DNA of 64,000 nt from positions 947 to 64,946 of the forward strand of contig CAVWAA010000027.1 in NCBI GenBank assembly GCA_963752805.1, written 5' to 3'. A program made the position numbers and the translations under genes. Shown here in pieces: positions 37,247 to 57,574 of this stretch (position 1 is its first letter; every line of letters starts with the position of its first letter). The notes beneath the pieces are model-generated. The model worked only from the letters and a program-made list of their open reading frames with translations. It was not told where the DNA came from and made no database searches. The DNA is from Candidatus Binataceae bacterium. Its GTDB lineage: Bacteria; Desulfobacterota; Binatia; Binatales; Binataceae.

Positions 37247-37471
37247 ATCCGCGCTCGGCCACGGGCGCTCTTAACTACCCGTCCCGGTCAAATTCACCAC
37301 ATGAGGACTGTTGACGTTGAAATCTTTAATCGTGAGTGAGCCGTTTCGGTAAGCTCAATTGCCGTTGACCATAATAGCTTGACAATCAACGGGGCGACTT
37401 TCGGCTAGTTGTGCTAAGCGATGCGATCAATGAGCAAGCGTGCCAGCGAGGGAACTAACAAGGAGCAAGCG

Positions 37472-38656
37472 ATGTACTCATTGAAGGATAAGGCGTGCAT
37501 CGTCGGGGTGGGTGAGTCGGCGTTCAGCCGCGGCTCAGGCAAAACCGAACTGAGGCTGATGCTGGAAGCTTCGCTCGCCGCGATCAACGACGCGGGACTG
37601 AAGCCGCACGATATCGACGGCATCATCGGCCCGCCGCTGGGCGCCACCGCCGAACATTTTGCCGCCAATCTTGGGATCGAAGATTTGCGCTATGCGACCA
37701 CCGTGCACATGGGCGGTGCCAGCCCGGTGGTCGCGCTGCAAAGCGCCGCGCTTGCAGTTGCCTGTGGGATAGCCAACCACGTCCTGATTCCATGCGGATG
37801 GAACGGTTACTCGTCCAACCCGGTGCGCGGAGGCGGAGCGCGTGCGGAAACCGGCGAGCGGCCAATCCCGGCACCGAACCCGTTGGCCAATACGATTGGT
37901 GCCTATTATCTGCCTTACGGGGCGACCGTGCCGGCCCAGTTTTACGCGTGGCTGGCGACTCGCCACATGCAGATGTATGGCACACCGTTTGAGTCGATGG
38001 GTGCGATTGCGCTCGCCGAACGCAAGCACGCGCAGCTCAATGAGAAAGCGATGATGCGTGGACGGCCGCTTACAATGGACGACTATTTGGCAGCACGCTG
38101 GGTGTCCTATCCCTTTCGGCTGTATGATTGTTGTCTTGAGACCGACGCAGCCTGCGCGATTGTGATGAGCGCGGCGGAACGCGCGCGCGATTTGGCCAGG
38201 CCACCAGTCTACATCTCGGGCGTTGCGGAAGGACATCCCTATCCCGCTGATGACATCCCGGCGCGTCCTGACCCCTTTGTGATCGGACTTAGCTTCGCCG
38301 CGCCCAAAGCATTCGCGATGGCTGGGGTTACGCACAAAGACATCGATTTTATGGAAGTATATGACTGCTTCACTTACGTGGTAATGTTGCAAATTGAGGC
38401 GATGGGATTTTGCAAGCGCGGCGAGGTGAAGGATTTTGTGCGTGGCGGACGGCTCGAACTCGGCGGTGAACTGCCGCTCAATACCCACGGCGGCCTCCTT
38501 TCCGAAGCCCACGTCTGGGGCACCAATCATATCGTTGAAGCAGCCCGTCAGCTGCGCCACGAATGTGGAGCCCGCCAGGTTCAGGATGCTGAAGTTGGGC
38601 TGGTGACTGGCTGGGGCGATTTTGGTGACGGCGGGCTGGCAATCCTGAGGAGGTAA
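37472..38656 (+). CDS. thiolase-fold protein (SCP-x / lipid-transfer type acetyl-CoA acetyltransferase-like)
   Basis: AGGAG 6 nt upstream of ATG 37472; [10 protein letters not shown]-terminus and C-terminal [11 protein letters not shown] motif of SCP2-type thiolases. Confidence 0.85.
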
Positions 38657-38660
38657 GGCC

Positions 38661-39080
38661 GTGGCTGAAAGCAAATCGTACAAGCTGCCATTACCGCGCA
38701 CGGGTGGCATGGCGGCCGAGTTCTATCGTTTCTGCAAGCAGCACGAATTGCGTTTTCAGCGATGCACCGAATGCCAGGCTTGGCGTCATATCCCGCGCGA
38801 CATGTGCGCCAGATGCGGCTCATTAAAATGGGAATGGACGCGCTCAGCGGGTAAGGGCAAGGTCTTTTCATGGACCACTGCGACCCAACCGATGATGCCG
38901 CAATTCGCCGATCAAGTGCCGTATAGCCCCGTGATCGTTGAGCTCGATGAGGGGGTCCGCATGGTCACCTGGCTGACGGGCGTGAAGCCGGATGAGTTGA
39001 AGTTGGGCATGCCGGTCGAGGTCGCCTTCGATGACGTGACCCCGGAAGTCTCGTTGCCGAAATTCCGGTGCGCTGCTTAG
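38661..39080 (+). CDS. Zn-ribbon OB-fold protein (DUF35 family)
   Basis: 139 aa; CTECQAWRHIPRDMCARCGS rubredoxin-like ribbon then OB fold; canonical partner gene immediately after an SCP2-type thiolase. Confidence 0.85.
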   Translation: MAESKSYKLPLPRTGGMAAEFYRFCKQHELRFQRCTECQAWRHIPRDMCARCGSLKWEWTRSAGKGKVFSWTTATQPMMPQFADQVPYSPVIVELDEGVRMVTWLTGVKPDELKLGMPVEVAFDDVTPEVSLPKFRCAA

Positions 39081-39110
39081 GCCAGCGCCGCTCGATCAGG
39101 GACCAAGCAA

Positions 39111-39803
39111 ATGCCGATTAGGATGTATGATTTGGCTGGATCGGAGCTGAACCGTCGCTTCAGTCCCTACTGCTGGCGAACCAAGCTCGCGCTCAAGCAT
39201 AAGGGACTGGATTTCGATACAATTCCATGGCGATTCACTGACAAGTCCGCAATTGCACCTTACAATTCGCAACGCGTTCCAGTGATCGTCGACGACGGCC
39301 GCAGTGTGGCCGATTCCTGGGCGATCGCGAACTATCTCGAAAATACCTATCGCGATCGGCCGCCGCTGTTCGGCAGCAAACAGGAACGGGCGCTCGCGCG
39401 GTTCTACAATCAATGGACCGATGTGACGCTGCACGGTGCGATAGGACCGATCGTCATGAGCGATATTTTGCAGCATCTGGACCCGCGCGATCGAGATTAT
39501 TTCCGCACCAGCCGGGAAGCTCGCTTAGGAACTCCGCTCGAAACGCTCGCGACCCGCCGTGAGAGTTATCTTTCGACTCTTCAGCAGGTGCTGGAGCCGC
39601 TGCGGCAGACGCTGGCCGCGCAGCCCTACCTCGCGGGAGATACTCCTTTGTATCCCGATTTTATCGTTTTTGGGGCGTTTCAATGGGCGCGTTCAATCAG
39701 TAATGTTCGGCTCGTACAGCCGTCCGATCCGATCGACTCGTGGCGCCAGCGGTTGCTCGACGCGTTCGGCGGCTTCGCGCGTAGCACGCCCGGCTACTGG
39801 TAA
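39111..39803 (+). CDS. glutathione S-transferase family protein
   Basis: 230 aa; N-terminal thioredoxin-like SPYCWRTKLALKHKGL...VPVIVDDG and C-terminal helical domain. Confidence 0.82.
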   Translation: MPIRMYDLAGSELNRRFSPYCWRTKLALKHKGLDFDTIPWRFTDKSAIAPYNSQRVPVIVDDGRSVADSWAIANYLENTYRDRPPLFGSKQERALARFYNQWTDVTLHGAIGPIVMSDILQHLDPRDRDYFRTSREARLGTPLETLATRRESYLSTLQQVLEPLRQTLAAQPYLAGDTPLYPDFIVFGAFQWARSISNVRLVQPSDPIDSWRQRLLDAFGGFARSTPGYW

Positions 39804-40205
39804 GGACGGGACCCGCGAAACGTCCGCAGCTCATTTGCTGTGAAGCGCTCTTTTTAAAGGCGTTGCTCTCAACACCCGTCACTTGAGCGAGCGGGAAAAA
39901 TTGGAGAGCAATTGGATAAGGGTCGAGACGTTTCAACTGAGAAGTTCCGGCAGGCACTCCAGCGCTATCGGTCCTTTTTCGATCTCTGATCTATTTAGAT
40001 CGTCTGTTCTCCGTCTAGTCTGCTGATTGTAGCGATGGCTGTACGCTCCGCAGGCATGTCGATAGAACAAGGGACGCACTGTTCGGGCGCCCCTCTATTC
40101 CTGCTTAATAGGCTATTGACCGAAAACCAGAAAAGCTGAAGCGCGTGCACATGGGCCTTGCCCCCAATCCATGTCAAACAAATTCGAGGAAGGGGCTTAG
40201 CCCTC

Positions 40206-40418
40206 TTATTCGTAACGGAAGCCTATCTTGACGGCAACCTGGAATGTCGGTTTGCCGTCGGGGCTCACCGCGCCGCGAATCTGGCCGACTTCGAACCAAT
40301 CAATATTGCGAATCGTCTGTGCCGCCTTCTTCAATGCGTTACGCACCGCCTGATGAATGCTGTCATCTGATACGCCCACAACTTCGATAACCGGGTAGGT
40401 ATTGTCCGCCATCTTCAT
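40206..40418 (-). CDS. dodecin family flavin-binding protein
   Basis: 70 aa; YPVIEVVGVSDDSIHQAVRNALKKAAQTIRNIDWFEV...KIGFRYE matches the dodecin pattern (start at 40418 or 40412). Confidence 0.82.
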   Translation of the reverse strand: MKMADNTYPVIEVVGVSDDSIHQAVRNALKKAAQTIRNIDWFEVGQIRGAVSPDGKPTFQVAVKIGFRYE

Positions 40419-40485
40419 CTCCGCAATGACATGTTGTCAGACGACGAGCGTACTGCGTTCTCGAGGTGTCTTGCCAAATGCCCTA

Positions 40486-41007
40486 TCAATGGAAAGGCCG
40501 AAGGTAGTTCTTAAGCTTGTGGAGGTTGGTGCGGCCGGTCAACGGCGCTCTCGAACGCATGGATTCACGCAGCACGGCCATCTCAATGCCCATCGGTTCG
40601 GTCCCGAACGCCAAATCCCATAACGCAGAGGTTACACCGAAGCAGCGGTTCGGATAATGCTCGTGGTGAATCAGATGGCGCGAGCGTAGATAGTTTTCAG
40701 CAGATCCACGCGGGCGGCAGAAATGGATGCGGTAATGAATTGCCTCATATCCGGCAAAGCCCGCCACCGCACCGCTGAACAGTATTATCCACGGTGTCCA
40801 GCGAAACAGAACAGCCATGATCGTCCAGATTGCAGCAATCGGAATCCACGCCCGAATCGTGAAGACGGCATGAGCGTCGCGATGGTGCGCAGCATGGAGC
40901 CGCATCGCGAACGTGCGAAAGGTATGGCTGAGCCAGCCGTGAATAAGGTATTCCAGGAATGTCCATACGAACATACCAGCCGCGAACAAGGCGACCTCCT
41001 CAACCAT
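40486..41007 (-). CDS. fatty acid hydroxylase / sterol desaturase family membrane protein
   Basis: 173 aa with histidine boxes HAAHHRDAH, HYRIH and HLIHHEH between TM segments. Confidence 0.75.
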   Translation of the reverse strand: MVEEVALFAAGMFVWTFLEYLIHGWLSHTFRTFAMRLHAAHHRDAHAVFTIRAWIPIAAIWTIMAVLFRWTPWIILFSGAVAGFAGYEAIHYRIHFCRPRGSAENYLRSRHLIHHEHYPNRCFGVTSALWDLAFGTEPMGIEMAVLRESMRSRAPLTGRTNLHKLKNYLRPFH

Positions 41008-41331
41008 AATGTCATTTTATCTGAATCGCAGCGTGGAAGCCCGAATCGCTCGCTGTTCACGAACTGCCAGGAGCTTTCTGGCTGGCCGTGTAGCCCGCGG
41101 GAAGGTAAAGGCGGGCAGAATCTTCCGGCTCGCCCAAACGTTATTCATGAGAGGCCGCTTTTGTTGTAATCTCATTGGCAAGGATGCGTTACGTTTAGGG
41201 TGCGACTCGCCGGACATATGCTACGTAATGCGGACATTACGCTCGTATGAATTTCAATTCGTCAGGCGTCGTCTGAAAGAAGGAAATATCGCCGCGCTGG
41301 TTAATCCGCCGGTAATCTTCAGGAGGAATTC

Positions 41332-42927
41332 ATGGGCAAGACGGTCGCCGCTGTAACGGGCGGCGTGGTTTTGGGATTAGCGATAGCTTTTGCCAACGCG
41401 GGTGCTTTTCAGTTTCCGTGGGGCTCGGGGGACAATGGTTCCAAGCCCCAGGCCTCTTCTCAGAACCAGCCCCAGCCAAGCCACCAACCCGCCCCACCGA
41501 ATGCGCCCGAACCGAACGAACCTGCGGTTGCGTTGCCCTCATGGGCGCCGCTGGTCAAGCGAGTGATGCCAACGGTCGTGAATGTGGCTGTGGTGCAGGA
41601 AGTAAAGTCGTCCGGCTTTCCTTTTCCGGGCGACAGCGGCAGCGGTGATGACGAGGGGCAGGGCCCGGGGATGGGACCGCAAGGTCCTGGCGGGAACCCG
41701 TTTGGCCCCGGAAATCCGTTCGGTGGCGACCCGTTCGAGCAATTTCGCCATTTCTTCGGTCAGACGCCGCGCAATTACAAGGAACATGGACTCGGGTCAG
41801 GAGTTATCGTATCGCCCGACGGCTATATCCTGACGAATGACCACGTGGTGGGACATGCAGATGAAATCCACGTCACTTTGCTCGACAAGCGCGAATTCAC
41901 CGCCAAAGTCGTCGGTAAGGACCAAAAGACTGACTTGGCTTTGATAAAAATCGATACCAATCAGCATTTGCCCTACGCTGCGCTTGGAAATTCGACCAAA
42001 GCCGAAGTCGGCGACCCGGTGATGGCGATTGGCAGTCCCTTCGGCTTCAATCTCTCTGTGACATCGGGGATTATCAGCGCCAAAGGGCGCGCGCTCGGCG
42101 GCAACTACGATGACTTCATTCAGACTGACGCGTCGATCAATCCGGGCAATTCCGGTGGCCCGCTCTTCAACACCAGCGGCCAGGTGATCGCCGTCAACAC
42201 CGCTATTTACAGCAGCACCGGCGCCAACAACGGCATCGGCTTCGCCATTCCAATCAACTTGGCGAAGTCCGTCATGGAGCAATTGAAGGCGCACGGCAAA
42301 GTGGTGCGTGGCTGGCTTGGGGTCGAGATCCAGGAAGTTACGCCCGACCTCGCGAAATCGTTCGGGCTGTCAATGCCGAGCGGCGCGTTGGTAGCCGGGG
42401 TTGAGAGTGATGGTCCCGCTGCCAAAGCCGGAATCGAACGGGGCGACATTATCGCCAAATTCAACGGTGAAACCGTCCATGACGAGCATGAACTGCCGGA
42501 AATGGTCGCGGCGACGCCGATTGGTAAGCAGGTTCCGATCGAGGTAATCCGCAACGGCAAGCACGTAACGCTTGACGCGACCATTGCGGTTTTGAAAGAG
42601 CAACAGATTGCCAGTGCCGAAAATCCCGGTGAGGCAGGGGCGAGCTGGGGTTTGCAGGTGCGCGATCTGACGCCGGAACTCGCTCAGCAACTGGGGCTGC
42701 ATAACAGCAAAGGTGTGGTAGTCACTGGTGTCAAGCAGGATTCACCTGCCGCCGATGCCAATCTGCAGCAGGGTGATCAGATTCTCGAAATCAACCACAA
42801 GAGAATAAACAGCGCCGACGAATTCGCGACCTTGGCCCGCGACGCGCAGAAGAGCAAGTCGCAGGCATTACTGCTTGTCCAGCGCGGCAGCGCAACCTTG
42901 TATACGGTGATCAATCCGCAAGGTTGA
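41332..42927 (+). CDS. htrA: Do/DegP/HtrA family periplasmic serine endoprotease with two PDZ domains
   Basis: 531 aa; signal/anchor, catalytic TNDHV, DLALIK and GNSGGPL motifs, two PDZ repeats. Confidence 0.9.
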   Translation: MGKTVAAVTGGVVLGLAIAFANAGAFQFPWGSGDNGSKPQASSQNQPQPSHQPAPPNAPEPNEPAVALPSWAPLVKRVMPTVVNVAVVQEVKSSGFPFPGDSGSGDDEGQGPGMGPQGPGGNPFGPGNPFGGDPFEQFRHFFGQTPRNYKEHGLGSGVIVSPDGYILTNDHVVGHADEIHVTLLDKREFTAKVVGKDQKTDLALIKIDTNQHLPYAALGNSTKAEVGDPVMAIGSPFGFNLSVTSGIISAKGRALGGNYDDFIQTDASINPGNSGGPLFNTSGQVIAVNTAIYSSTGANNGIGFAIPINLAKSVMEQLKAHGKVVRGWLGVEIQEVTPDLAKSFGLSMPSGALVAGVESDGPAAKAGIERGDIIAKFNGETVHDEHELPEMVAATPIGKQVPIEVIRNGKHVTLDATIAVLKEQQIASAENPGEAGASWGLQVRDLTPELAQQLGLHNSKGVVVTGVKQDSPAADANLQQGDQILEINHKRINSADEFATLARDAQKSKSQALLLVQRGSATLYTVINPQG

Positions 42928-43068
42928 TTGCGAATGGTCACACGGCCGTTTCGCCGCGGGCAGAGGGCAGGTGTCCCTCTGCCCGCGGCGTTTTCAAGAG
43001 TCAACGCTGGGCTTTTGCCCCGTCCGCTTCGGCTTCGTTTATAACGCCATAACACGCAAAGCGGATAA

Positions 43069-44286
43069 ATGAGCCTGGTAGGCAAGTACGACGTTGTAAT
43101 CTCGGGTTCGGGACCGGCGGGACTGGCAACCGCACTTCACCTGCTGCAGATGCGGCCTCGCTTGGCGGGTCGCATTGTTGCGCTTGAACGAGCGCAGCAT
43201 CCGCGTCCTAAAGTCTGCGCCGGCGGTCTGATTCCGCGCACGATAGAGGCCTTGGGCGAGCTTGGAATATCTTTGGAAGTTCCATTCGTCACGGTATTTG
43301 GCGGCATCGCACGGACCGAGGGGGGCACGATTGATTTAACTCCATCGTGCGAGCCTCTCTGCACGGTCGTGCGGCGCAACGAGTTCGATGCGATGCTGGC
43401 TCGTCACGCGCGCGCAGCCGGACTGGAGATCATCGAGAAGAATCGGGTGCTGGGAGTCGAGCAGCGGGGCGAGGGGCTCAGAATCGCGACCGAGCGCGGA
43501 CTGCTCGATGCGCAGGTGCTCGTGGGCGCCGATGGCAGTGGAAGCCGGGTGCGGACTTCGCTGTTCGGGCGAACCAAGCACAACATTGGGCGGGCGCTAA
43601 TAGCGGAGGTGCCAGTCCTTCACGGTAGCGCTGAAGAATTCGTCCGACGCCTTTATCGGTTCGATTTCAATTGCGTCACCGCCGGTATCAATGGATATTG
43701 CTGGTCCTTTCCGTGTCTGATCGATGGGCAACCGCACCTCAATATGGGAATTTACGATCAAAATCCGTCTCATGCGGCGCCAGGAAGTTCGAAGGGCGAT
43801 TTGCTGGGGCAGTTACGTACGGCATTCCCGGAGATTGATTCATTTTCGGACTCAGATAAAAGGCTAGCGGTCAGAGCATTTCCGATCCGTTGGTATGACC
43901 CGCAGGATTGCTATGTGCGCGGGCGCACGATCCTCGCCGGCGATGCGGCCGGCGTTGACCCATTGATGGGAGAGGGAATTTCATGCGCATTCGAGCACGG
44001 CAAGCTCGCGGCAGATGCGCTCGCACGTTATTTGGACGGCGACTGCTCGGCACTTGAGGCGTACGGGGAAGAACTTCACCGCGGGTTGTTAGGACGCAAA
44101 CTCCGGCGCCTCGCCTTCGCCGCGCGGCGTTTCTACGGTGCTCATCACCGCTTTTATTTTCGTCTGGCCGGGTTCAGCGGCAGGCTACAACGGTTGAGCG
44201 TGGATTGGTATAACGGCGCGCGGCGCGTCGACGAGCTATCAATAGTACGAGCAATGATGAGGCTGCTGTTCTACGGGTCCGTTTAG
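43069..44286 (+). CDS. FAD-dependent oxidoreductase, geranylgeranyl reductase-like
   Basis: 405 aa; YDVVISGSGPAGLATA dinucleotide-binding motif and GDAAGVDPLMGEGI motif. Confidence 0.8.
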   Translation: MSLVGKYDVVISGSGPAGLATALHLLQMRPRLAGRIVALERAQHPRPKVCAGGLIPRTIEALGELGISLEVPFVTVFGGIARTEGGTIDLTPSCEPLCTVVRRNEFDAMLARHARAAGLEIIEKNRVLGVEQRGEGLRIATERGLLDAQVLVGADGSGSRVRTSLFGRTKHNIGRALIAEVPVLHGSAEEFVRRLYRFDFNCVTAGINGYCWSFPCLIDGQPHLNMGIYDQNPSHAAPGSSKGDLLGQLRTAFPEIDSFSDSDKRLAVRAFPIRWYDPQDCYVRGRTILAGDAAGVDPLMGEGISCAFEHGKLAADALARYLDGDCSALEAYGEELHRGLLGRKLRRLAFAARRFYGAHHRFYFRLAGFSGRLQRLSVDWYNGARRVDELSIVRAMMRLLFYGSV

Positions 44287-44581
44287 ACCGACCTCTACGC
44301 TGCCCAATCGGGTTTAGCAGTGGCAATCACCCATAACCGGCGGAAGCGGCGTCGAGCTTCAACCGGCCTGACCAGAATGCAGCAGCGAAAGCGCCCAGCT
44401 GCGGCATTCGGTGAAACGTACTCTGATTATCGCCGGGATTGCGCTCCTCGCCGCGTCGGTCTTGATCCGGCGGATACTGCGGCCGTTGCGCCAATCGCAG
44501 TATTCCCATGGCTGGCGAATCGTGCAACCCGCTAATCATGTCCCTCGCCCGCTGCCGCCATCCGTCTACCCCTCTGCGAGA

Positions 44582-44589
44582 GAAATTAG
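44582..44589. repeat. target-site duplication, left copy (GAAATTAG)
   Basis: Identical 8-mer directly outside both terminal inverted repeats (44582-44589 and 49457-49464). Confidence 0.8.
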
Positions 44590-44612
44590 GGTAATAATAT
44601 ACTTGACTGGAC
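44590..44612. repeat. left terminal inverted repeat (IRL)
   Basis: GGTAATAATATACTTGACTGGAC; exact reverse complement of 49434-49456. Confidence 0.88.
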
Positions 44613-44632
44613 CACGCGGCCAATGCTAGATT
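44603..44632 (+). promoter_or_regulatory. candidate IR-embedded promoter for the transposase
   Basis: TTGACT (44603-44608, inside IRL), 18-nt spacer, TAGATT (44627-44632); GTG 44633 / ATG 44639 follow immediately, so the transcript would be near-leaderless. Confidence 0.35.
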
Positions 44633-45594
44633 GTGGTCATGACGCCCACGACTCTTCAAGACGCAATCCGCTACTTCAGCGACTTCGATAACTCCCAGCG
44701 CGCCATGATTGACATGCGCTGGCCTGACGGCGTGGTGCGTTGCCCGACATGCAATTCCGACAAGGTTGTCTACTTGCCAAGTGGCCGCGTATGGCGATGC
44801 GCCACCAAGCACGCTCTGCGCAAGTTTTCGCTCAAGGTTGGAACCATCTTCGAGGATTCGCCAATCGGCCTGGATAAGTGGTTTACGGCGATGTGGCTGA
44901 TTGCGAACTGCAAAAATGGCATCAGCTCCTACGAGATTCATCGCGACATAGACGTTACTCAGAAAACTGCATGGTTCATGCTTCATCGGATTCGCCTGGC
45001 GTGGAACGCCGGCAGTATCGACAAGATGACCGGCGAAGTTGAAGCTGACGAAACTTTTATCGGTGGCCTCGCCCGTTTCATGCACAAAGACAAAAAGGCA
45101 AAGATCACGGGCACGGGCGGGGCCGGTAAAGTCGCGGTAATGGGCTTGCTCGAACGGCACGGCAAAGATGGCGTCAGCCGGGTCCGCGCCAAGGTCCTCC
45201 GCAATGTACGAGCAGAAAGCTTGCACAAAGAAATCCGTGAGAACGTTGAGGCCGGTAGCGAGATGTTCACGGATGCCTGGGTAGGTTACAAGCACATTGA
45301 CCGCGACTACATGCACAATGTCATCGACCATGCTGAGAAGTACGCGGAAGGCCGTGTCCATGTGAATGGGATCGAAAATTTCTGGTCGCTGCTCAGCGTG
45401 GCTTGAAAGGCACCTACGTTAGTGTCGAACCCTTCCATCTCTTCCGGTACGTGGACGAACAGGCTTTCCGATTCAACAACCGCAAAGATACGGATGGGCA
45501 ACGGTTCGCCGAAACGCTGTCATCGGTTACGGGCAAGCGGCTGACTTACAAGAGACTGACTGGCAAGGCTGAGCCCCAATTGACGCTCTTATAA
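44633..45594 (+). pseudogene. IS1595 family transposase (Zn-ribbon + DDE), one frameshift near 45395
   Basis: RWPDGVVRCPTCNS...RCATKHALRKFSLKVGTIFEDSPIGLDKWF...ISSYEIHRDIDVTQKTAWFMLHRIR, then the DDE part VEADETFIGG...TDAWVGY...NGIENFWSLL. The frame breaks at CTCAGCGTGGCTTGA (expected ...LLKRGLKGTYV...) and continues in ORF 45403-45594 (KGTYVSVEPFHLFRYVDEQAFRFNNR). Confidence 0.85.
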
Positions 45595-45635
45595 AACCGC
45601 GACAGGGACGGGGCGGGCGTGGTAAACTTTAAAGC

Positions 45636-45809
45636 GTGAAGCCTGAAGAGCACCACGCCAAGCCTGAAGATTTCTCGCCGTTCGACCGTTTCCGCGAATT
45701 CGCTCGGCGAATTATTGCCGTACCAAAAGCGGAGATAGATAAACAAGAAGCGGAATATCAACGGCAACGCGCATTGCGAAAGAAAGTCGCGCCCCCGAAG
45801 GGGCGCTAG
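45636..45809 (+). CDS. hypothetical small basic protein (57 aa, GTG start)
   Basis: Below the ORF-track length cut-off. VKPEEHHAKPEDFSPFDRFREFARRIIAVPKAEIDKQEAEYQRQRALRKKVAPPKGR; resembles small conserved hypotheticals I recall next to mobile/TA loci. Stop embedded in GC palindromes. Confidence 0.3.
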   Translation: MKPEEHHAKPEDFSPFDRFREFARRIIAVPKAEIDKQEAEYQRQRALRKKVAPPKGR

Positions 45810-45889
45810 CGCTATAGCGCGCCGACTGTTATAAAGCGAATCGACACTTAGACACCTGCCTTTCTCCCCGGCTTACGGGGCGGGTATTT

Positions 45890-45922
45890 CGCGCCGTCAG
45901 TGTTCACGACACTGACGGCGCG
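45890..45922 (-). terminator. strong hairpin immediately 3' of the 45928 stop
   Basis: Perfect 14-bp stem CGCGCCGTCAGTGT / ACACTGACGGCGCG with 5-nt loop; no clear U-tract on the minus strand and a modest T-rich tail on the plus strand. Confidence 0.45.
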
Positions 45923-45927
45923 AGTAT

Positions 45928-46647
45928 TTAGTTCTCTTCTGAATCTCCTAGCGCAATTTGTAAAATCTTAATCAGCTTTGAAAGTTCCTTTGGTTGCCAG
46001 TCATCAGGCAGCTGAATCCAGGCCAAACGTGTTGGACCTAGGGGCAACGGGATACGCGGCGATTTCGACTCCGATTCTGGTGCAGTATGGCGATTGAGTT
46101 CTGATTCTGATCGACGAGGAGATCCAAGTGTGTTCGGATCCAATGGGAATCCGGCCAGCGCAAGTGATATCGGGCCGTTTGCTCTGACTGTGTCATCATT
46201 GCTCTCAATCAGTCCCGCCTCTACGAGCATGTCAACGATGGGTTTCGTCGGTCCGGTCTGTTTGATGCCGCCCGCTATGGCGATCTCCCCTTTCAATAGG
46301 TCGAGCTTCATCGGCCCGCGTGCTCGAACCATCCCTAGGAAACCATTAAGCGCTGTGTTTGCACGTATGATTTCCTGAAGCGCTTCGCTCGTGAGTGCCG
46401 CATTGTCCATTGCGAACCCGGACGCCAACCGCAATCCTAGCGGGGTCAACTTATTTTCATTTTCCTGAACGATCCCAACTTCACGAAGGAAGTTATTGTT
46501 GGAACTTACGACAGGCCGTTGCAGTCCAGCTATCTCAGCAACTTTATCGACAGTCGGTTTGTCGATGTCCTGCACTTCTCCGTAAGCCCGGATGATCTGC
46601 TTCAATGTGGACCATGAAGACATTGGCATAGACAATCTGTTTGCCAT
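45928..46647 (-). CDS. hypothetical protein, N-terminal wHTH-like region (transposon cargo)
   Basis: ORF 45928-46746; candidate ATGs at 46647, 46629 and 46623. KPTVDKVAEIAGLQRPVVSSNNNFLREVGIV looks like a helix-turn-helix; no family recognised. Confidence 0.5.
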   Translation of the reverse strand: MANRLSMPMSSWSTLKQIIRAYGEVQDIDKPTVDKVAEIAGLQRPVVSSNNNFLREVGIVQENENKLTPLGLRLASGFAMDNAALTSEALQEIIRANTALNGFLGMVRARGPMKLDLLKGEIAIAGGIKQTGPTKPIVDMLVEAGLIESNDDTVRANGPISLALAGFPLDPNTLGSPRRSESELNRHTAPESESKSPRIPLPLGPTRLAWIQLPDDWQPKELSKLIKILQIALGDSEEN

Positions 46648-46825
46648 AAAACCGGGCTCCGTCAAATCTGTACAAATGCTCGCATTTGTGCGTAGAGAAA
46701 TCAAGGCTCTCCGTATAGTAGGCCCTAACACCACAATACCTAGCAACCATGTGTGGTTTATGCGATGTGGCGAATAGGTCTATGGCCATTTCGTATAGAT
46801 TGCATGGTGCATCCGTATACATATC

Positions 46826-46855
46826 TTGACATGGCAGGTTGCTGGTCCATACTAT
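46826..46855 (+). promoter_or_regulatory. candidate sigma70-type promoter facing the NYN gene
   Basis: TTGACA (46826-46831), 18-nt spacer, TACTAT (46850-46855), in an AT-rich stretch 170 nt upstream of ATG 47025. Confidence 0.3.
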
Positions 46856-47024
46856 TGGATGAACGGGCAAATCGAGCGACATCCGTAGCTCTTGACTAAG
46901 GCGGGTAAAGTCTTAGATTATGAAAACGCGATGTCCTACGGGATGCCGCCCTAACCCGCCCGGGGTCTGGTGATGAGCCACACGCCGGGCTTTTTATTGC
47001 CCATTTGCCGATGTTGGAGAGCCT

Positions 47025-47652
47025 ATGGCGGATCGGGCAGTCGTGTTCGTAGACGGAAATAATTGGTTCCACGGTTTAGAAGAGGCCGGAGTCCAGAGGA
47101 AGTTTGCGCTAGACTTCGCAAAGGTGAGCACAAAACTTTTGGGTCCGCGAGAATGGGTCGGAACCCGTTATTATGTTGGTCGGCTCAGCGTAACTTCGCC
47201 CAATTACGCCGATCAGCGAAAGCTGGAAGATTTTCTCTTAAAAACAGACCGTCGGATCAGCGTTCATTTTGGCCGCGTGGGACCCCGTCTTGTTGAAAAT
47301 GAAGCCGCCAGAGAGATCCTGGCTTACTTATATGGCCTCACTAGTAAAGATTGATCATCAAACGTTCCAAGGTTTGATCTCTATCGCAAAAAAACACGCA
47401 AAAACTTTGGTTTGGCACGAAAAGGCCGTGGATGTTCAACTGGCGGTGGATATGGTTGTGATGGCCACGCGCAAAGACTTTGATGCCGCCTACCTTCTCT
47501 CAGCGGATGGAGACTTCACTGGTGCAGTAGACTATGTCCGAAGTCTCGGCGGAAAAGTTTATGCTGCATCACCAATGCATGGAGCACAGCTCGCCAAGGC
47601 GGTTAATAAGTTCATTCCACTCGATTTAGCATGGTTTAGTAGCTGTTATTGA
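47025..47652 (+). pseudogene. NYN/LabA-like (PIN-related RNase fold) protein, split by one frameshift
   Basis: ORF 47025-47354 has the NYN N-terminal strand VVFVDGNNWFH. ORF 47269-47652 in another frame has the C-terminal half EKAVDVQLAVDMVVMA...YLLSADGDFTGAVDYVRSLGGKVY. Junction somewhere in 47300-47350. Confidence 0.75.
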
Positions 47653-47720
47653 TTTCCAGACTATCCGGTCTGGCGTGGGAACGGAGCACGCGCGGAAGTC
47701 GCGCCCAGAATGGACAGCGT

Positions 47721-49427
47721 TTAGGCTGATAACTCGCCCGCTTTCGCCGGGAGGATTGCCTCTGCGAGTCCCTTACATTTACTGGCGTTCTTGAACACAT
47801 TAGCAGGATAGGATCCTTTCGCTTGTTTTTCCTTTTCTCCGGTAGCCTTTGCTAGCATTTCTAGTGCGATCTGCGGGATCCCTTCTTTCATTTTGTCGAA
47901 CTCAGCCTGAGGTATTCTGTCATATTTATCCAACGCTCGAAAAACTAGATGAAGGATAAATCTGTTGCCATGCACAGCTATTAGCCGGTCTTTTCCCTCA
48001 AGGTTAGCTTGCTCTCTTAACATTTCACCAACCGTGCGATTACCTCAACAGATCGCCACAGTTTCAGAGCCGAGACAGAAGCATTGAAAAGTCTCTTGTA
48101 TGGAGCTTGTGTAATATCTTCGTACAGTAAACCGACTTCACGTTTAGCCTGTACGCATAAACTGGGATCCTCGTGAGCGCAGGCGAGTGCAACGACGGCA
48201 TCATCAAATGTGCAGCCTTCTTCAGGTAACGGCGGGCGATCTCCAGTTTTATATGCGTAGTTCTTTTCGCGCTCCAGAAGCAATTCTGTCTTTAGACGGT
48301 CTTGTTCTGGATCCTGCGCGGCAAAGTCTTTTTTCTCAATCCGATTCTGCGTGTTAGCCGCTCTTGTTAGTTCTCCAGCAAAAGTCGGCGGACACTTTTC
48401 GAGATCGATAATTCGTATCGCCACACGCGCCCGGTGAAAACCATTTGGTCCGCCGTCAATTGCCGATAGAATGCTGCCAACTGTCTGAGCGCCATTAACG
48501 ACGCTCGCCCCTTCGCACTCGAATACGCCGCTCTCGCGACTTGACCCACCCAATGGCTGTTTCGACAATTTATCGCACAGAATCGTAATGCCGTTTAAAA
48601 TACCAAAAGTTCTCAGGTGCGAATCGGGCCGTTTTTACAATTCCTTCATTAACATCCGTGCTGCCCTTGAAACCGCGAAGATTACGGGCATAGAGAGCCT
48701 GCCCAAACGCTCTCCACGTTTCGATATCTTGCAAATCCACCATGCCGTAGTACGCCGAATATGGTTCGGTGACTTTACCCCATTCGTGCAAAAGTACGGT
48801 TAGTTTAACTGACTCTCCAATTGCCTGACGTGCCACTACCGAATGGAGATCAGCTTGGCGAAACTGTTTGAAACTGATCAGTTCTGTTGGGTCATTTTGT
48901 TCCTCCAAAAACTCTTCTATGGGGCGCAACGCCTCCGACGACATTGCCTGTTCGCCTGTATAACCGATAATCAGTACGAATGTTGCTGATGAATCCGTCA
49001 GCGCAGCATCGATTTCCGGTTTTTTTTGCTTAAGTTTATCAAAGTGGTCGAGCTTGGCTTCTAGCAGATCCGTTACTCCCTGAAGGAATTTATGGACCTC
49101 GCCGACTCCAATGCTCCCCTTCCCGTTATGGATCCATTTTGATTGAACGAGATAGCAGACGCGGTCAGTGGCATCGAAATAGAACGCATCGATGCCATTG
49201 TCTTTGAATCCATCAACGACGGCCTTCGCCGCGATCTTGTCATCGACCTCAGCTAGTTCAGCGACCAGAAATGCAGCCAAGCTCCGCGTTAGGAAAAAAT
49301 TCTCCCGATCTTCTGGTTTCGGGGATCCAAGATCGCTTAGGTCAATCTGCCCTTCGAAGCGTTTCTGAAGAGCCGCTTTTATGTGGCCAATGTGCAAAAT
49401 CGCCATGACACAATTATAAGCATCCAC
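47721..49427 (-). pseudogene. AIPR (abortive infection phage resistance) family protein, two frameshifts
   Basis: Three collinear ORFs: 48570-49427, 48017-48568 and 47721-48023. N-domain GIDAFYFD...CYLVQSKW. At about 48595 ENFWYF is followed by a shifted NGITILCDK, with an extra base in a TTTT/AAA run. AIPR core VVNGAQTVGS...ANTQNRI. Second shift at about 48020. Confidence 0.78.
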
Positions 49428-49443
49428 CTATCAGTCCAGTCAA
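49413..49443 (-). promoter_or_regulatory. candidate IR-embedded promoter for the AIPR gene
   Basis: Minus strand: TTGACT (49443-49438, inside IRR), 19-nt spacer, TATAAT (49418-49413), ATG at 49406 only 6 nt downstream. Mirror image of the arrangement at IRL. Confidence 0.3.
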
Positions 49444-49456
49444 GTATATTATTACC
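49434..49456. repeat. right terminal inverted repeat (IRR)
   Basis: GTCCAGTCAAGTATATTATTACC; exact reverse complement of IRL. Confidence 0.88.
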
Positions 49457-49464
49457 GAAATTAG
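49457..49464. repeat. target-site duplication, right copy (GAAATTAG)
   Basis: Identical to 44582-44589. Confidence 0.8.
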
Positions 49465-49504
49465 GTGAGGGCGGCGACGCGAGCGAGGGTGCGGTTGAAC
49501 GAGC

Positions 49505-50050
49505 TTAAACGTCGAGCTCTATCACGCGGCGGTCACGCTGGCGGAAGTCCAGCACCTCGACGTAGGGCCGCATTGAAGGAATCGCGTCCATCCGCAGTTC
49601 GTCATCGACGCGGCTTGTGCCTTCGCCGGGATTCTTGCGGGTAATATTAACAAACTCGCACTCGTGGCCCAGCGCTACGGCGTAATGCCAGACGCCTTTT
49701 TCGATGAACGCGGCCTGTCCGGGCTCGACGAAAAATGCTGCCAACCGATCGTAGTCAATCTCGTATTTCTCGTGGCCGTCACCGCGGTTGCGCGGCGCCG
49801 GCGCGACTACCAACGCCATCGTGCCGCGCAGCGGAATGAAGGTTTGATTATAGGAGAAATGTGTCGCCATCATGCTGATCCGGCGCGGATTAACTGGCCG
49901 CTTGAGTCTCAGCAGTTCGAGCGCGACTCGTCCTTCGCCCGGTTCAACTTCCGGAAACAGCGGCTGTTTGTTTTCGAGCATATGGCCGTATGGGCGAAAA
50001 GCTTCCGCGGTAAGTGGTTGTACTTTGATCCCGACTACTCCATCTTCCAT
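49505..50050 (-). CDS. ureidoglycolate lyase-like cupin protein
   Basis: ORF 49505-50527 is over-extended; the conserved part starts at ATG 50050 (MEDGVVGIKVQPLTAEAFRPYGHML...), resembling Ureidogly_lyase family proteins. Confidence 0.65.
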   Translation of the reverse strand: MEDGVVGIKVQPLTAEAFRPYGHMLENKQPLFPEVEPGEGRVALELLRLKRPVNPRRISMMATHFSYNQTFIPLRGTMALVVAPAPRNRGDGHEKYEIDYDRLAAFFVEPGQAAFIEKGVWHYAVALGHECEFVNITRKNPGEGTSRVDDELRMDAIPSMRPYVEVLDFRQRDRRVIELDV

Positions 50051-50210
50051 AGCTGGCGCTCCCGCAAATTCATCGACGATACAGTAAAGGCTGTCGAATG
50101 TTTGGCAGAGCTTAGACGCGCCTGCAGAGATTTGACAAGCGAAACGGATCGTCCAATCGGCTTCAAAGCCTCTGCTGGTTATCCGCCCGGACCTGTATAA
50201 TTGCGGAATT

Positions 50211-51041
50211 ATGGCGTGGCTGCAGGTTGCTGACGAACTCGGTTTCAAAGTTGAGTTGGAGCGTAAGCCTGAGCGAGTGGTTTCTCTCGTGCCAAGCTGG
50301 ACCGAGACCTTGTTTGCCTTTGGCTTGAATGAACGAATCGTTGGCGTTACGCGCTTCTGCGTTGCGCCGCTTGAGACTGCTGCGGTTGCCAGGATTGGCG
50401 GCACCAAGAACCCGAATCTCAATACGATTGCCGAACTTGCGCCTGACCTGGTCATTGCGAATGCAGAAGAGAATCGGCGTGAGGACATCGAGCATTTGCG
50501 CAGCCTCGGCATCGCAGTATTCACCACCTACCCGCGCAAGATCGGCTCTGCCGTTGAATCGATAATGAGACTTGGCACCGTACTGGACTGCGAACCGCAG
50601 GCGAACGCGATGGCGCGCGGGATCGTCCGCGAGGTAAGCGCAATCGAGACGGAACTCGGGGCATGGGCGAAGCTGCGCTTTCGCGCCTTTTGTCCGATTT
50701 GGAAGAATCCCTGGATGAGCTTCAACGCGGACACTTACGCCCACGACGTACTGCGGATGCTGGGCTTCAACAACATTTTTGCTTCCGCCGGCGAACGTTA
50801 CCCACGTATGACAATTGACGAAGCGATTGCCTTGCGGCCGGATTTTGTGCTGCTGCCGGACGAGCCCTACGAATTTCGCGTGAAAGACGTCGAGGAGCTA
50901 AAGCCGCTACTGCCGCCGCCGCTGAGCCGGCGTGCGGTACTCATTAGTGGACGCGACCTTCATTGGTATGGCGCTCACATGCTCACCGGTCTGCGCACAC
51001 TGGCCGGATTACTGGCGCGAGTGCGCGCCTCCGCGCTGTAG
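50211..51041 (+). CDS. BtuF-like / helical-backbone metal-receptor substrate-binding protein (Peripla_BP_2 fold)
   Basis: 276 aa; RVVSLVPSWTETLFAFGL...IVGVT...PDLVIANAEENR pattern; no obvious signal peptide. Confidence 0.7.
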   Translation: MAWLQVADELGFKVELERKPERVVSLVPSWTETLFAFGLNERIVGVTRFCVAPLETAAVARIGGTKNPNLNTIAELAPDLVIANAEENRREDIEHLRSLGIAVFTTYPRKIGSAVESIMRLGTVLDCEPQANAMARGIVREVSAIETELGAWAKLRFRAFCPIWKNPWMSFNADTYAHDVLRMLGFNNIFASAGERYPRMTIDEAIALRPDFVLLPDEPYEFRVKDVEELKPLLPPPLSRRAVLISGRDLHWYGAHMLTGLRTLAGLLARVRASAL

Positions 51042-51164
51042 AGCGGTCAACGATTAGCGCACAGCCGCGCCGCGATATGAAGGATTTTCCCGCGTATCAG
51101 AGTTTGTGAGACTAAGGCTGAAAGCTGGCCGCGAGAACTAAAAAGTTAAACTACGGAGGAAACG

Positions 51165-52367
51165 ATGGCCGCATCAGCGCCCCTCAATGGAATAAAGATC
51201 CTGGATCTGACCAAGCTCGCGCCGGGGCCTCATTGCACGATGATCCTGGGCGACCTTGGCGCCGATATTATCAGGGTCGAAGAGCCTGGCGAGCCGACTG
51301 GTCGGCGAGCAGCGCAGGCCGGCACCGGTCAGGTGAAGGCGCCGCGCCCCAGCTATGCGCCGACCAACGCCGTAGCCCGCAATAAGCGCTCGATTGCTCT
51401 TAACCTTAAGAGCGAACCGGGGCGAGACATTTTTCTGCGGCTCGCGCGCGATGCGGATGTGGTAGTCGAAGAGTTTAGACCCGGTGTGGCGAAGCGGCTG
51501 GGAATTGATTACGAGCTGCTGTCGGGACTTAACCCGAAGTTGATTTATTGTGCCGTAACCGGTTTCGGGCAGACCGGCCCTTACCGCGACCTGGTCGGCC
51601 ACGACCTGAACTACATCGCTCAGGCAGGCGCGCTCGGCCTGATTGGCCGCAAAGGCCAGCTGCCGGCGATTCCGCTCAACCTGCTCGCCGATTACGCGGG
51701 CGGCGGGATGCATGCCGCAATCGGCGTGCTCGCCGCACTGGTCGCGCGCAATCAGACCGGCCGCGGCCAGTATGTCGATATCGCGATGCTCGACGGCGTG
51801 ATGTTGCTGTTGGCGCAGGCGCTGAGCACCTATTTCAGCAACCGCAAAGTGCCGGAGCGTGGTACGCAGCCCGGTGACGGCGGTGCCCCATTCTATAACA
51901 TGTATGAAACCAGCGACGGGAAAATCATCACGATCGCGTCGATGGAGCCGTGGTTCTATGCCAACCTATGCCGCGCATTGGATTGTGAGCAGTATATTGG
52001 CGGCCAATATGAGCGCGACAAATGGCCGGAGATGTTCGAGCATTTTGCCCGTACTTTCAAAACCAGGACCCGCGACGAGTGGTGGGATATCCTGACCCGT
52101 GCGGATATCTGTGTGGGCCGGATGCTGACGCTGGATGAACTCGAAAGTGATCCGCAGGTCCGCGCCCGCAATATGATTGTGGAAGTTGAAACCGGCTCCG
52201 GGGAAACCGTGAAGCAGGTCGGAGTTTCGGTCAAGTTGTCTGAGACGCCGGGCTCGATCCGGTCGCTTGCGCCAACACTGGGCCAGCATACAGACGCGAT
52301 CCTGGCGGACTTGGGGTATAGCCCGCAGGACGTCGCACGTTGGCGCGCCGACGGCGCGATTCGGTGA
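51165..52367 (+). CDS. CaiB/BaiF family III CoA-transferase
   Basis: 400 aa; PLNGIKILDLTKLAPGPHCTMILGDLGADIIRVE N-terminus and GHDLNY motif. Confidence 0.87.
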   Translation: MAASAPLNGIKILDLTKLAPGPHCTMILGDLGADIIRVEEPGEPTGRRAAQAGTGQVKAPRPSYAPTNAVARNKRSIALNLKSEPGRDIFLRLARDADVVVEEFRPGVAKRLGIDYELLSGLNPKLIYCAVTGFGQTGPYRDLVGHDLNYIAQAGALGLIGRKGQLPAIPLNLLADYAGGGMHAAIGVLAALVARNQTGRGQYVDIAMLDGVMLLLAQALSTYFSNRKVPERGTQPGDGGAPFYNMYETSDGKIITIASMEPWFYANLCRALDCEQYIGGQYERDKWPEMFEHFARTFKTRTRDEWWDILTRADICVGRMLTLDELESDPQVRARNMIVEVETGSGETVKQVGVSVKLSETPGSIRSLAPTLGQHTDAILADLGYSPQDVARWRADGAIR

Positions 52368-52372
52368 TCGCA

Positions 52373-53695
52373 ATGGCAGAATCAACCATGTTTATGAGGG
52401 CTCCGCATGAACCGCTCACGATCGAGCGAGCCGAGGGTCCATGGCTTTACACCAACGATGGCCGGAGGATTCTTGACGCAGGCGCGGGCGCCGTGGTGGT
52501 CAACATCGGACAGGGACGCGAGGAGTTGGCCCAGGTCGCGGCTGAAGAAGTGGCCCGGCTTAATTATATCGTGCCGGTCTGGTCATCAGCCGCACGTGAA
52601 CGCCTGACTGCGCGGCTCGCCCGCTGGATGCCGGCCGGACTAAATCGATTCTTTTTCACCAGCGGTGGTTCCGAGGCGGTAGAGGCGGCCTTGAAGTTCG
52701 CCATCATGTATCAAAAGGCAAAGGGGCGGCCGCAAAAACATAAGATTATCTCGCGCTGGTTTTCTTATCACGGCAACACCCTCGCCGCGCTTTCGGTGGG
52801 CGGCAACCTCGGGCGACGCGCCGATTATGAACATGTGCTGCTGCAATGGCCGCATATCGGGCCGCCATTCTGCTATCGATGCCCGTGGGGCAAGACCTAT
52901 CCGGGATGCGATATCGATTGCGCGACCGCACTTGAACAAGAAATTGTCAAGCACGGCGCCGATTCAATCGCCGCGTTTATTGCCGAACCGATGATGGGAG
53001 CGACCGGCGGCGCAGTTCCGCCGGTCAGAGAGTATTGGCCCAGGCTCGCGGAGATTTGCCGGCGCTATGAAATCCTGCTGATTGCGGACGAAGTCATGAC
53101 CGGCTTCGGCCGCACCGGCAAACGTTTTGCAGTCGAACATTGGAATTTAAAGCCCGACGTGCTGATCGGCGGCAAGGGGCTTACTGGCGGATATCTGCCG
53201 ATGGGCATGATCGCGGTCGATGAAAAACTGGTCGAAGAATGCGAGCAGGCTGGCGCCGATTTCATGTTCTATACCTACAGCGCTCATCCGCTGGCCTGCG
53301 CAATGGCTGATAGGGTGCTCGAAATCATGGAGCGCGAGCATCTGGTTGAACGCGCGGCCGAGCTTGGCGCACGGCTCGGAGCACAGTTGAAAGAGCAGTT
53401 GTCCGGTCACCCGATCATCGGCGACATCCGCGGCACCGGGCTTTTCTGGGGTATCGAAATTGTGCGTGACAAAGCCATGAAAGTCCCCTTTGCGCCAGAC
53501 TTGCGCATTACCAATCGGGTGATTGGCACGGCTTTGAAGCATGGACTCTTCGTTTATCCGACCAGCGGAATGGCCGGCAAGGAGGGCGGCGATGGTGTGA
53601 TGGTAACGCCGCCATTCGTGATTGGCCCGCCGGAGATTGATTATATCGTCCGGAAGCTGCGCACCGCTCTCGACGAGGTTCACGCGACTCTGTAG
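52373..53695 (+). CDS. class III (omega-type) pyridoxal-phosphate aminotransferase
   Basis: ORF 52340-53695 with ATG 52373; FFTSGGSEAVEAALK, LLIADEVMTGFGRTGK and the lysine region GKGLTGGYLP. Confidence 0.87.
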   Translation: MAESTMFMRAPHEPLTIERAEGPWLYTNDGRRILDAGAGAVVVNIGQGREELAQVAAEEVARLNYIVPVWSSAARERLTARLARWMPAGLNRFFFTSGGSEAVEAALKFAIMYQKAKGRPQKHKIISRWFSYHGNTLAALSVGGNLGRRADYEHVLLQWPHIGPPFCYRCPWGKTYPGCDIDCATALEQEIVKHGADSIAAFIAEPMMGATGGAVPPVREYWPRLAEICRRYEILLIADEVMTGFGRTGKRFAVEHWNLKPDVLIGGKGLTGGYLPMGMIAVDEKLVEECEQAGADFMFYTYSAHPLACAMADRVLEIMEREHLVERAAELGARLGAQLKEQLSGHPIIGDIRGTGLFWGIEIVRDKAMKVPFAPDLRITNRVIGTALKHGLFVYPTSGMAGKEGGDGVMVTPPFVIGPPEIDYIVRKLRTALDEVHATL

Positions 53696-53835
53696 CGATC
53701 ATCATTCAACGAGCTTGCCAGAACTCTCCGTTCCCTGTCTTCCTCAAGGGCGAGCCCGCAGCCTCGAACAAGCCGCCGTTTCGGCGGTAAGATAAAAAGC
53801 GCCGTTGAATTACCGGCCAAGTGGAGGCGTTGCAG

Positions 53836-54708
53836 ATGGCGGATATAATCGGACCCACTTCGCACTTCTATTATTCGCAGCGCCTGAAGCTGCACTATGT
53901 CGATTGGGGCAATCCCGACAAACCGCTGGCGATCCTGCTTCATGGCGGCCGTGACCATTGCCGTAGCTGGGACTTCGTCGCCCTGGACTTGCGTGAGCAC
54001 TTCCATGTGGTGGCGCCTGACTTGCGCGGCCACGGTGATTCCGATTGGTCGATTGGCGGCAGCTACTCTATCACTGACCACGTGCTCGACCTGGGCCAAT
54101 TGATGAATGCGCTGGAACCGCATGCTCCGGTCGTTTTGGTCGGCCATTCGCTAGGTGCAGGGGCGGTGCTGCAGCGCGCCGGGGTTTTTCCCGAGGCGGT
54201 GCGGGCGGTCGTTGCGATCGAAGGGCTCGGGCCGCCGGGGGCGATGATCCGCGAAACTCCCGCACATGAGCGGATGCAGCATTGGGTGATCGACATGCTG
54301 GCGTTGGCGCAGCGCAGGCCGCGCGAATACCCGTCGCTGGAGGCAGCGATGGCGCGCATGCACGAGGCCAACCCCCATCTGACGCCTCAACTCCAGCGTC
54401 ATCTAACGATTTACGGCGTGCGGCGCAACGAAAACGGCACTTATTCCTGGAAATACGACAACTACAGCCGGGCGACTTCGCCTTACCTGTTCAATCTAAA
54501 GGACGCGATGGAGATCTGGTCGCGGATTCGATGCCCAGTGCTGCTGGTGCGCGGTGACGCATCGTGGGCGGGCGATTGGGAGCGTGATGGGCGGTTGGAT
54601 GCGTTTCGAACCGCGGAACTTGCTACGCTCGCAAATGCCGGCCACTGGGTCCATCATGACCGGCTCGGCGAATTCCTGGGCGTGGTGCATCGGTTTCTGA
54701 ATCTGTGA
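53836..54708 (+). CDS. alpha/beta hydrolase
   Basis: HGGRDH oxyanion region, nucleophile elbow GHSLGA, C-terminal GHWVHHD. Confidence 0.8.
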   Translation: MADIIGPTSHFYYSQRLKLHYVDWGNPDKPLAILLHGGRDHCRSWDFVALDLREHFHVVAPDLRGHGDSDWSIGGSYSITDHVLDLGQLMNALEPHAPVVLVGHSLGAGAVLQRAGVFPEAVRAVVAIEGLGPPGAMIRETPAHERMQHWVIDMLALAQRRPREYPSLEAAMARMHEANPHLTPQLQRHLTIYGVRRNENGTYSWKYDNYSRATSPYLFNLKDAMEIWSRIRCPVLLVRGDASWAGDWERDGRLDAFRTAELATLANAGHWVHHDRLGEFLGVVHRFLNL

Positions 54709-56780: not shown

Positions 56781-56909
56781 AGCGCCTCTTTAGTGCTCGT
56801 CATTGCTGACCTCGGCACTTGTCGCTGCTGCAAGCAATCGTTTGCCCGCGTTAGGAGAACGGGTCAATATCGAAGGCGTTTGCGCTCGTTACTCCAACGG
56901 AGACCGATC

Positions 56910-57446: not shown

Positions 57447-57574
57447 GCATCGCGGCAAAACGCCATGAGCCCCGCAAAATTGAGTATTTGGTGAAGGCAG
57501 ACGCTCAGCAGTTTTCTCGCGGTCAATCTTGGTGTAAAGGAACATTATAACCCCTGCGAGGTAATGTCCTGATT

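Follow-up and report, generated by a model that had tools for sequence, protein, structure and literature searches.

Comparison with described elements

Insertion sequences (ISs) that carry passenger genes in the organisation considered here have already been catalogued as transporter ISs (tIS), and the type was known beforehand. Its occurrence is said to be confined to two families, IS1595 and IS66 (TnCentral preprint 10.1101/2021.05.26.445724; see also PMC7986276). We describe an element of 4,867 bp that occupies positions 44590-49456 of a 64,000-nucleotide stretch of the Candidatus Binataceae contig CAVWAA010000027.1, referred to below as the window. With high confidence we regard it as an IS1595-family tIS that has inserted here with defence-type cargo.

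The described elements used for comparison are those of the ISNwi1 group. ISfinder lists passenger-bearing 'ISNwi1+' forms of 1.75-4.75 kb. The subgroup itself is defined, as in ISfinder and Siguier et al. 2009, by inverted repeats (IRs) that end in ggnnatTAT and by a DDEK + ER4 signature. Like the ISNwi1+ forms, the window element has a single Zn-ribbon/DDE transposase, terminal IRs, an 8-bp target-site duplication and passengers inside the IRs. Its IR start, GGnnAT(T/A)AT, and the signature D..D..E-x6-K followed by E-x3-R, which appears in the transposase as the motifs IENFWSLLK (E-x6-K) and DEQAFR (E-x3-R), fit the description of the group, to which it may belong. The IR start of the window element, GGTAATAAT, agrees with the defining ggnnatTAT at 8 of 9 positions; those of the related loci L031, L061 and L082, GGCAATTAT or GGTAATTAT, match this definition exactly. 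The window element differs from the ISNwi1+ forms in being slightly over their size range, and in belonging to an environmental clade in which all assessable members carry cargo and a conserved 57-aa open reading frame (ORF) follows the transposase. One-ended capture by ISEcp1 or ISCR is alike in that a single transposase mobilises adjacent non-transposition genes. It differs in that the window element has two identical bona fide IRs with the cargo between them, and shows no sign of surrogate ends.

The insertion and its empty site

The element is delimited by left and right IRs (IRL and IRR) and by the two copies of the duplicated target:

44582-44589, no strand: left copy of the target-site duplication, GAAATTAG, 8 bp, adjoining IRL
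44590-44612, plus strand: IRL, GGTAATAATATACTTGACTGGAC, 23 bp, holding a -35-like TTGACT at 44603-44608
49434-49456, minus strand: IRR, 23 bp, exact reverse complement of IRL (23/23)
49457-49464, no strand: right copy of the target-site duplication, GAAATTAG, 8 bp, adjoining IRR

The insertion was established by comparison with L086, a 281-kb contig from another sample (ENA ERZ25039605 contig_74394) that covers the same neighbourhood. Its flanks are 99.4-99.6% identical to window positions 37332-44590 and 49457-59044 (16.8 kb), and it reads ...CTCTGCGAGAGAAATTAGGTGAGGGCGG... uninterrupted, with a single GAAATTAG. Because this 99.5%-identical strain keeps the empty site, the insertion of 4,867 bp with an 8-bp duplication is proven. 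An earlier sequence-only reading of the window had predicted exactly this empty site from removal of the element, and L086 holds the prediction verbatim. The same reading had proposed perfect 23-bp IRs and an 8-bp duplication, both of which hold at the positions listed above, and an interior more AT-rich than its surroundings, with which the calculated GC content agrees (0.47-0.55 inside the element, 0.58-0.61 in the flanks). Within the element the GC content falls in steps, from approximately 0.54 in the left-hand backbone to approximately 0.48 in the rightmost gene. IR matches number two in the 64-kb window, even allowing up to 3 mismatches, and none were found in 100 shuffles. With a single transposase gene and no internal IR, the locus is one element with genuine passenger DNA and not a composite of two ISs, as had also been proposed.

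The proposal that the element inserted cleanly between genes is close to correct. The right-hand gene stops 41 nt short of the site, and what is altered is the stop of a hypothetical 66-codon ORF (44411-44629) with a signal-anchor-like N-terminus. In L086 this ORF ends at a TGA immediately after the target octamer; the insertion replaces the stop and adds 12 codons that run into IRL. No Rfam family matches anywhere in window positions 43000-51000, and no tRNA or tmRNA gene lies near the element.

Transposase and cargo genes

Between the IRs the order is transposase, sORF57, a hairpin, ORF239 (minus strand), a structured stretch, a NYN gene and an AIPR gene (minus strand):

44603-44632, plus strand: predicted transposase promoter, TTGACT-18 nt-TG-TAGATT, with the ATG 6 nt later
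44639-45594, plus strand: IS1595-family transposase with Zn-ribbon and DDE domains (Pfam PF12760, PF12762; NCBIfam NF033547), frame interrupted
45636-45809, plus strand: sORF57, a conserved small gene of 57 aa directly after the transposase, intact
45888-45924, no strand: perfect hairpin with a 17-bp stem, terminator-like, between the convergent sORF57 and ORF239
45931-46647, minus strand: ORF239, a tandem winged-helix protein by its AlphaFold model, 41 homologues, intact
46826-47005, plus strand: promoter-like TTGACA-18-TACTAT and a structured stretch of approximately 140 nt, upstream of the NYN gene
47025-47652, plus strand: NYN (LabA-like) nuclease gene (Pfam NYN; PADLOC HEC-09), frameshifted
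47721-49406, minus strand: AIPR/AbiU-type abortive-infection gene (Pfam AIPR, PF10592; PADLOC AbiU), with two frameshifts

The transposase scores 29 bits against PF12760 (cut-off 25.4), 88 bits against PF12762 (cut-off 27) and 147.6 bits against NF033547 (cut-off 75). It has more than 8,000 homologues, which are 313-323 aa at full length, and its best identity to plasmid-borne IS1595 transposases in PLSDB is no higher than 40%. A Zn-ribbon and ISXO2-like DDE transposase, terminal IRs and an 8-bp duplication place the element in IS1595; one transposase, IRs and a duplication, with NYN, AIPR and ORF239 inside the IRs, make it a tIS. The sequence-only reading had likewise placed an IS1595-type transposase at the left end. 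The family assignment stands, with the correction that the gene is not one open frame and is split at about 45395. The uninterrupted transposase frame of an autonomous copy is thus absent here, which concerns the activity of this copy and not its family membership.

The two rightmost genes are candidate single-gene anti-phage defences, as judged by their sequence matches. The two halves of the NYN gene match consecutive parts of Pfam NYN, and the conceptually repaired product of 208 aa covers positions 1-145 of 145 with 69 bits. It also matches the 203-position HEC-09 model of PADLOC (66 bits, E 6e-19), and in spanning the NYN domain it resembles HEC-09 and the LabA-like NYN nucleases. It differs in that the window gene is frameshifted and may have a structured leader RNA upstream for which there is no known counterpart; HEC-09 is itself a candidate system only. 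AbiU1/AIPR proteins form an abortive-infection family that is often linked to restriction-modification systems (PMC3506569). The repaired AIPR product is 561 aa long. Over 99% of this length it shows 89% identity to P0125 and 87% to P0126, both of them intact proteins of 561 aa. It scores 99.8 bits against Pfam AIPR and 73.5 bits against PADLOC AbiU and has the motifs NGITI and VNGAQT; its thousands of homologues are approximately 555 aa long and are named AIPR by their sources. The AIPR/AbiU domain and the length of approximately 550 aa are seen after this conceptual repair. Unlike the family at large, the window gene is broken twice (as assembled) and has no linked restriction-modification system. 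The same AIPR gene is also present in L091 (84% DNA identity) and L090, where no IS end adjoins it, and the gene is therefore captured cargo.

The two remaining genes are intact. By tblastn, a homologue of sORF57 follows the transposase in at least 13 loci of the relatives (L005, L009, L014, L015, L017, L018, L021, L023, L025, L029 and L087-L089). These homologues form a family of approximately 55 aa with the motif FxRFxEFxRRIxxVPKxE, in which the ratio of non-synonymous to synonymous substitution rates (dN/dS) is 0.05-0.06. This ratio and the recurrence after the transposase identify sORF57 as a real conserved gene. It has no match in Pfam, NCBIfam or PADLOC; in part of the clade it may represent an accessory gene of the elements that has gone unrecognised. 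ORF239 belongs to a family of 41 proteins of approximately 240 aa, none with a Pfam domain, and a motif at the C-terminus, IPLPLGPxRLAYIQLPxDW, is conserved in the alignment. The AlphaFold model of ORF239 (mean pLDDT 78.5) contains winged-helix domains in tandem as well as a small module at the C-terminus. Fold searches returned weak best matches in the PDB to SelB WH2-4 and MarR/MntR (E >= 0.03), and no sequence match was found in Pfam, NCBIfam, PADLOC or the PDB.

Relatives and cargo diversity

We examined 80 metagenome loci with transposases 54-68% identical to that of the window, and 24 loci on viral contigs. An IR pair with a perfect 8-bp duplication delimits 25 of the metagenome relatives, at lengths of 1,978-5,650 bp, and both IR cores were found in 34 relatives (1,971-5,643 bp). 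The sequence-only reading had described passenger-bearing forms as a minority, and had named an IRR immediately after the transposase in other copies as an observation that would speak against its interpretation. In none of the 65 loci with enough sequence does the right end lie within 1.3 kb of the left end, so that no such copy appears among them and the minority statement fails for this clade. The relatives on viral contigs likewise carry cargo rather than end within 1.3 kb. Cargo carriage is the rule, not the exception, in this transposase clade.

The cargo of these relatives is diverse: 46 cargo ORFs fall into 38 unrelated clusters. The families include DUF3800, PIN, Trypsin_2, Mrr_cat, NA-iREase1, SLFN_AlbA_2, DNA methyltransferase, PD-T4-10_B, PDC-S45 and a pAgo-like protein. 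The final cargo gene starts no more than about 85 bp from IRR and points into the element in approximately 17 of 25 cases. A further comparison is with L092, a 2.9-kb relative with the duplication CTAATTCG. Its IRL, transposase, small ORF and adjoining ORF239 homologue are shared with the window element at 72% DNA identity, after which the two sequences diverge up to IRR. The variable segment is therefore the right end, and the backbone of this sub-lineage consists of the transposase, sORF57 and ORF239.

Two other architectures were considered for the window element. According to one, a short tIS (IRL, transposase, sORF57 and ORF239) lost or skipped its right end and captured NYN and AIPR by fusion or read-through to the IRR of a downstream element. 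The extent of the backbone shared with L092, which stops at ORF239, and the stepwise fall in GC content fit such a history, as does a weak IR-like string at the backbone-cargo junction (46813-46835). That string needs 7 edits to become an IR and is equalled by a match in the unrelated flank at 49640; it is a chance look-alike, and we rejected it as an internal second IR. No IR copy at up to 3 mismatches lies inside the element, IRR matches IRL at every position, as surrogate ends do not, and one clean 8-bp duplication encloses the whole, which moved as one unit whatever its history. We therefore consider the fusion improbable. A composite transposon or an assembly chimera is far less probable still, to the point of being barely conceivable, and has nothing in its favour beyond a length unusual for an IS. 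Two IS copies bracketing cargo are refuted by the single transposase gene, by the presence of just two IRs in 64 kb and by the empty site of L086. A chimera is at odds with that exact empty site and its single target copy in a 99.5%-identical strain, and the relatives share the design of a single transposase with cargo. The single tIS is thus retained in what follows.

Broken reading frames

As assembled, three genes of the element are broken. The sequence-only reading missed the break in the transposase and the frameshifts in NYN (one) and AIPR (two). Loss of 1 nt at about 45395 (CTCAAGCG to CTCAGCG, relative to L089/P0122) splits the transposase into frames 44639-45406 and 45403-45594. Restoring one A yields a 318-aa protein that is 96.9% identical to the intact P0122 (318 aa). 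The NYN gene has a single frameshift near 47336, and alignment with intact relatives shows that the AIPR gene has lost 2 nt near 48595 and 1 nt near 48038. No damage other than such small frame-breaking indels was found in the three genes, and sORF57 and ORF239 are the only intact genes of the element. Because its transposase is frameshifted, the copy as read is unable to move itself. Compared with the nearest intact relatives, the sequence on either side of each lesion has a dN/dS of 0.04-0.09. This ratio implies that the genes were under purifying selection until very recently, and therefore that the breaks are either very recent or artefactual.

We lean towards a real and very recent inactivation of the three genes, with local assembly error as a substantial but less favoured explanation. 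Were the errors to account for everything, the element would be fully functional and its four lesions would be consensus errors of a long-read metagenome assembly, possibly arising from low local coverage if only part of the population carries the insertion. We think this quite possible, and not the likelier outcome. Several observations weigh against decay and in favour of error. The transposase frame is intact in 72 of 73 more distant relatives, which makes a copy broken in three genes unusual, and intact versions exist for each gene at 87-98% identity. Every mapped lesion is a deletion of 1-2 nt, with nonsense codons and larger damage absent, the low dN/dS persists past each break, and the IRs and duplication are perfect. 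Related contigs bear Flye-style 'contig_N' names, among them a single contig of 4.3 Mb, which suggests long-read metagenome assemblies, and one related contig (L086) has four single-base indels clustered within 16 nt.

Other observations oppose the error explanation. The remaining 59 kb of the window carries long intact ORFs, and the flanks differ from L086 by 9 indels over 16.8 kb, of which all 9 are intergenic and none lies in coding sequence. The error rate in the element would therefore have to be at least 10 times that of the flanks. In two of the lesions the change is not one of homopolymer length: one has lost AT and the other a G from AATGCGC. A genuinely decayed relative is also known. 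This 2.9-kb element with the duplication CTAATTAG (L087 5266-7523 / L088 3620-6503) has a transposase with an in-frame TAA and a compensated pair of frameshifts, identical in two different JGI samples. It is therefore a genuine pseudogenised copy, and real decay does occur in the sub-lineage. The synonymous divergence (dS) between the flanks of the window and L086 is 0.0106, and it is not impossible that four neutral indels accumulated in 4.9 kb since the split from L086 at the density of non-coding indels in the flanks.

The indel cluster noted above lies at window positions 37424-37439 (L086 93-105), around a GATC-containing stretch, in two contigs that are otherwise 99.4% identical. It could be a local basecalling artefact in one of the two assemblies.

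Insertion targets and predicted terminal promoters

Among 26 duplications the consensus is C-T-A-A-T-T-A-G, a palindrome; 24 of the 26 begin with C and 21 end with G. The relatives insert at a palindromic CTAATTAG-like target, as judged from these sequences, and the window duplication fits the consensus at 6 of 8 positions. Open frames of 100 codons or more cover 79% of insertion sites and 96% of control positions, a contrast too noisy in these GC-rich contigs to show whether insertions avoid genes.

The IR consensus across relatives is GGyAAyAATATACTTGAC, with a conserved core ATATACTTGAC. The left ends of most of the 25 relatives continue from TTGAC through 17-18 nt to a -10-like hexamer, followed 5-7 nt later by the transposase start. 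This arrangement implies a predicted promoter embedded in the IR and a leaderless transposase mRNA. At the right end of the window element the layout is mirrored, with TTGACT (49443-49438), 19 nt, TATAAT (49418-49413), 6 nt and the AIPR ATG (49406), and a -35 borne by IRR may likewise give rise to a leaderless AIPR mRNA. Against the promoters and leaderless mRNAs, it must be said that they are consensus matches only and that the 19-nt spacer at the right end is suboptimal.

DNA similarity to the L087/L088 relative stops at 45929, just past the hairpin at 45888-45924. The stretch of approximately 140 nt upstream of NYN folds with a minimum free energy of -57.2 kcal/mol (z = -3.6) and ends in a hairpin and TTTTTATT just before the NYN start. 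The 46826-47005 region has no Rfam match, and may serve the NYN gene as a leader/attenuator or encode a small RNA connected with it. The right ends of six relatives (L006, L007, L011, L033, L058 and L059) share CGTGACAGGCCGG, 40-55 nt inside IRR, which is absent from the window element. The transposase may bind this string as a second site, or the string may belong to a conserved leader of the cargo.

A model for mobility and cargo spread

The comparison with L086 shows that the element entered an intergenic GAAATTAG site of a soil-type bacterium after the split from the 99.5%-identical relative that has the empty site. From what is known of the family, the Zn-ribbon/DDE transposase would bind both identical 23-bp IRs and move everything between them, and staggered cuts 8 bp apart in the target would yield the 8-bp duplication. 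Each IR would supply an inward-facing -35, paired on the left with a -10 before the transposase ATG and on the right with the -10 of AIPR, so that the two terminal genes could be transcribed into leaderless mRNAs at any site of insertion. The element comprises a backbone (the transposase and the 57-aa ORF, with ORF239 in this sub-lineage) and a variable right-hand cargo, here NYN and AIPR. With its IRs intact, the defective copy would still be movable by a related intact transposase acting in trans.

The known picture of IS1595 tIS elements is unchanged by this locus, and the window copy may be dead. What it adds to the known type is the proof from the empty site, the three broken genes, the defence-type cargo and cargo as the rule of a clade, together with the CTAATTAG-like target, the conserved small ORF and the layout of predicted promoters within IRs. 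It provides a clean and datable case, with filled and empty sites approximately 0.5% diverged, of a minimal transposon bringing candidate anti-phage genes into a chromosome. That cargo is the norm in at least one large environmental IS1595 clade bears on the spread of small defence genes in soil bacteria.

A broader and rather unlikely proposal joins these observations. The environmental IS1595 clade would serve as an obligate shuttle for gene cassettes, one that is common among Acidobacteriota and Binatota of soils and among neighbouring groups. Its parts are that all members may carry swappable right-end cargo, often defence-like; that transcription of the cargo from a -35 built into IRR may yield leaderless mRNA; that the elements may home to CTAATTAG-like palindromes; and that sORF57 may have a part in controlling transposition or in exchanging cassettes. 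If true, these tIS elements would constitute a minimal vehicle, so far unappreciated, by which single-gene immune systems spread, and the window copy would be a case of toxic cargo and transposase quickly silenced in a new host.

Other occurrences of the ends and transposases

An exact 21-mer IR search of species-representative genomes returned only four ends, solo or relic, and no further complete copy, and the same search of viral contigs gave no match. In a Margulisiibacteriota metagenome-assembled genome (MAG), L001 2244-2286 is a 43-nt palindrome in which an IRL-like arm with 3 mismatches and a perfect IRR share 3 nt. No sequence separates its arms, and it is an 'empty' mini-element or a deletion relic. 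In a Vicinamibacterales MAG, a 7-nt tandem array (GATAGCT/GATAGCC) adjoins a solo IR copy (L002 5800-5933). The loci L095-L118, on IMG/VR contigs classified as viral, have transposases of 49-63% identity, lengths of 1.7-4.4 kb and perfect 8-bp duplications. L005 5310-9858 holds three adjacent IS1595-family transposase genes within 4.5 kb, which suggests a local pile-up or nesting of related elements.

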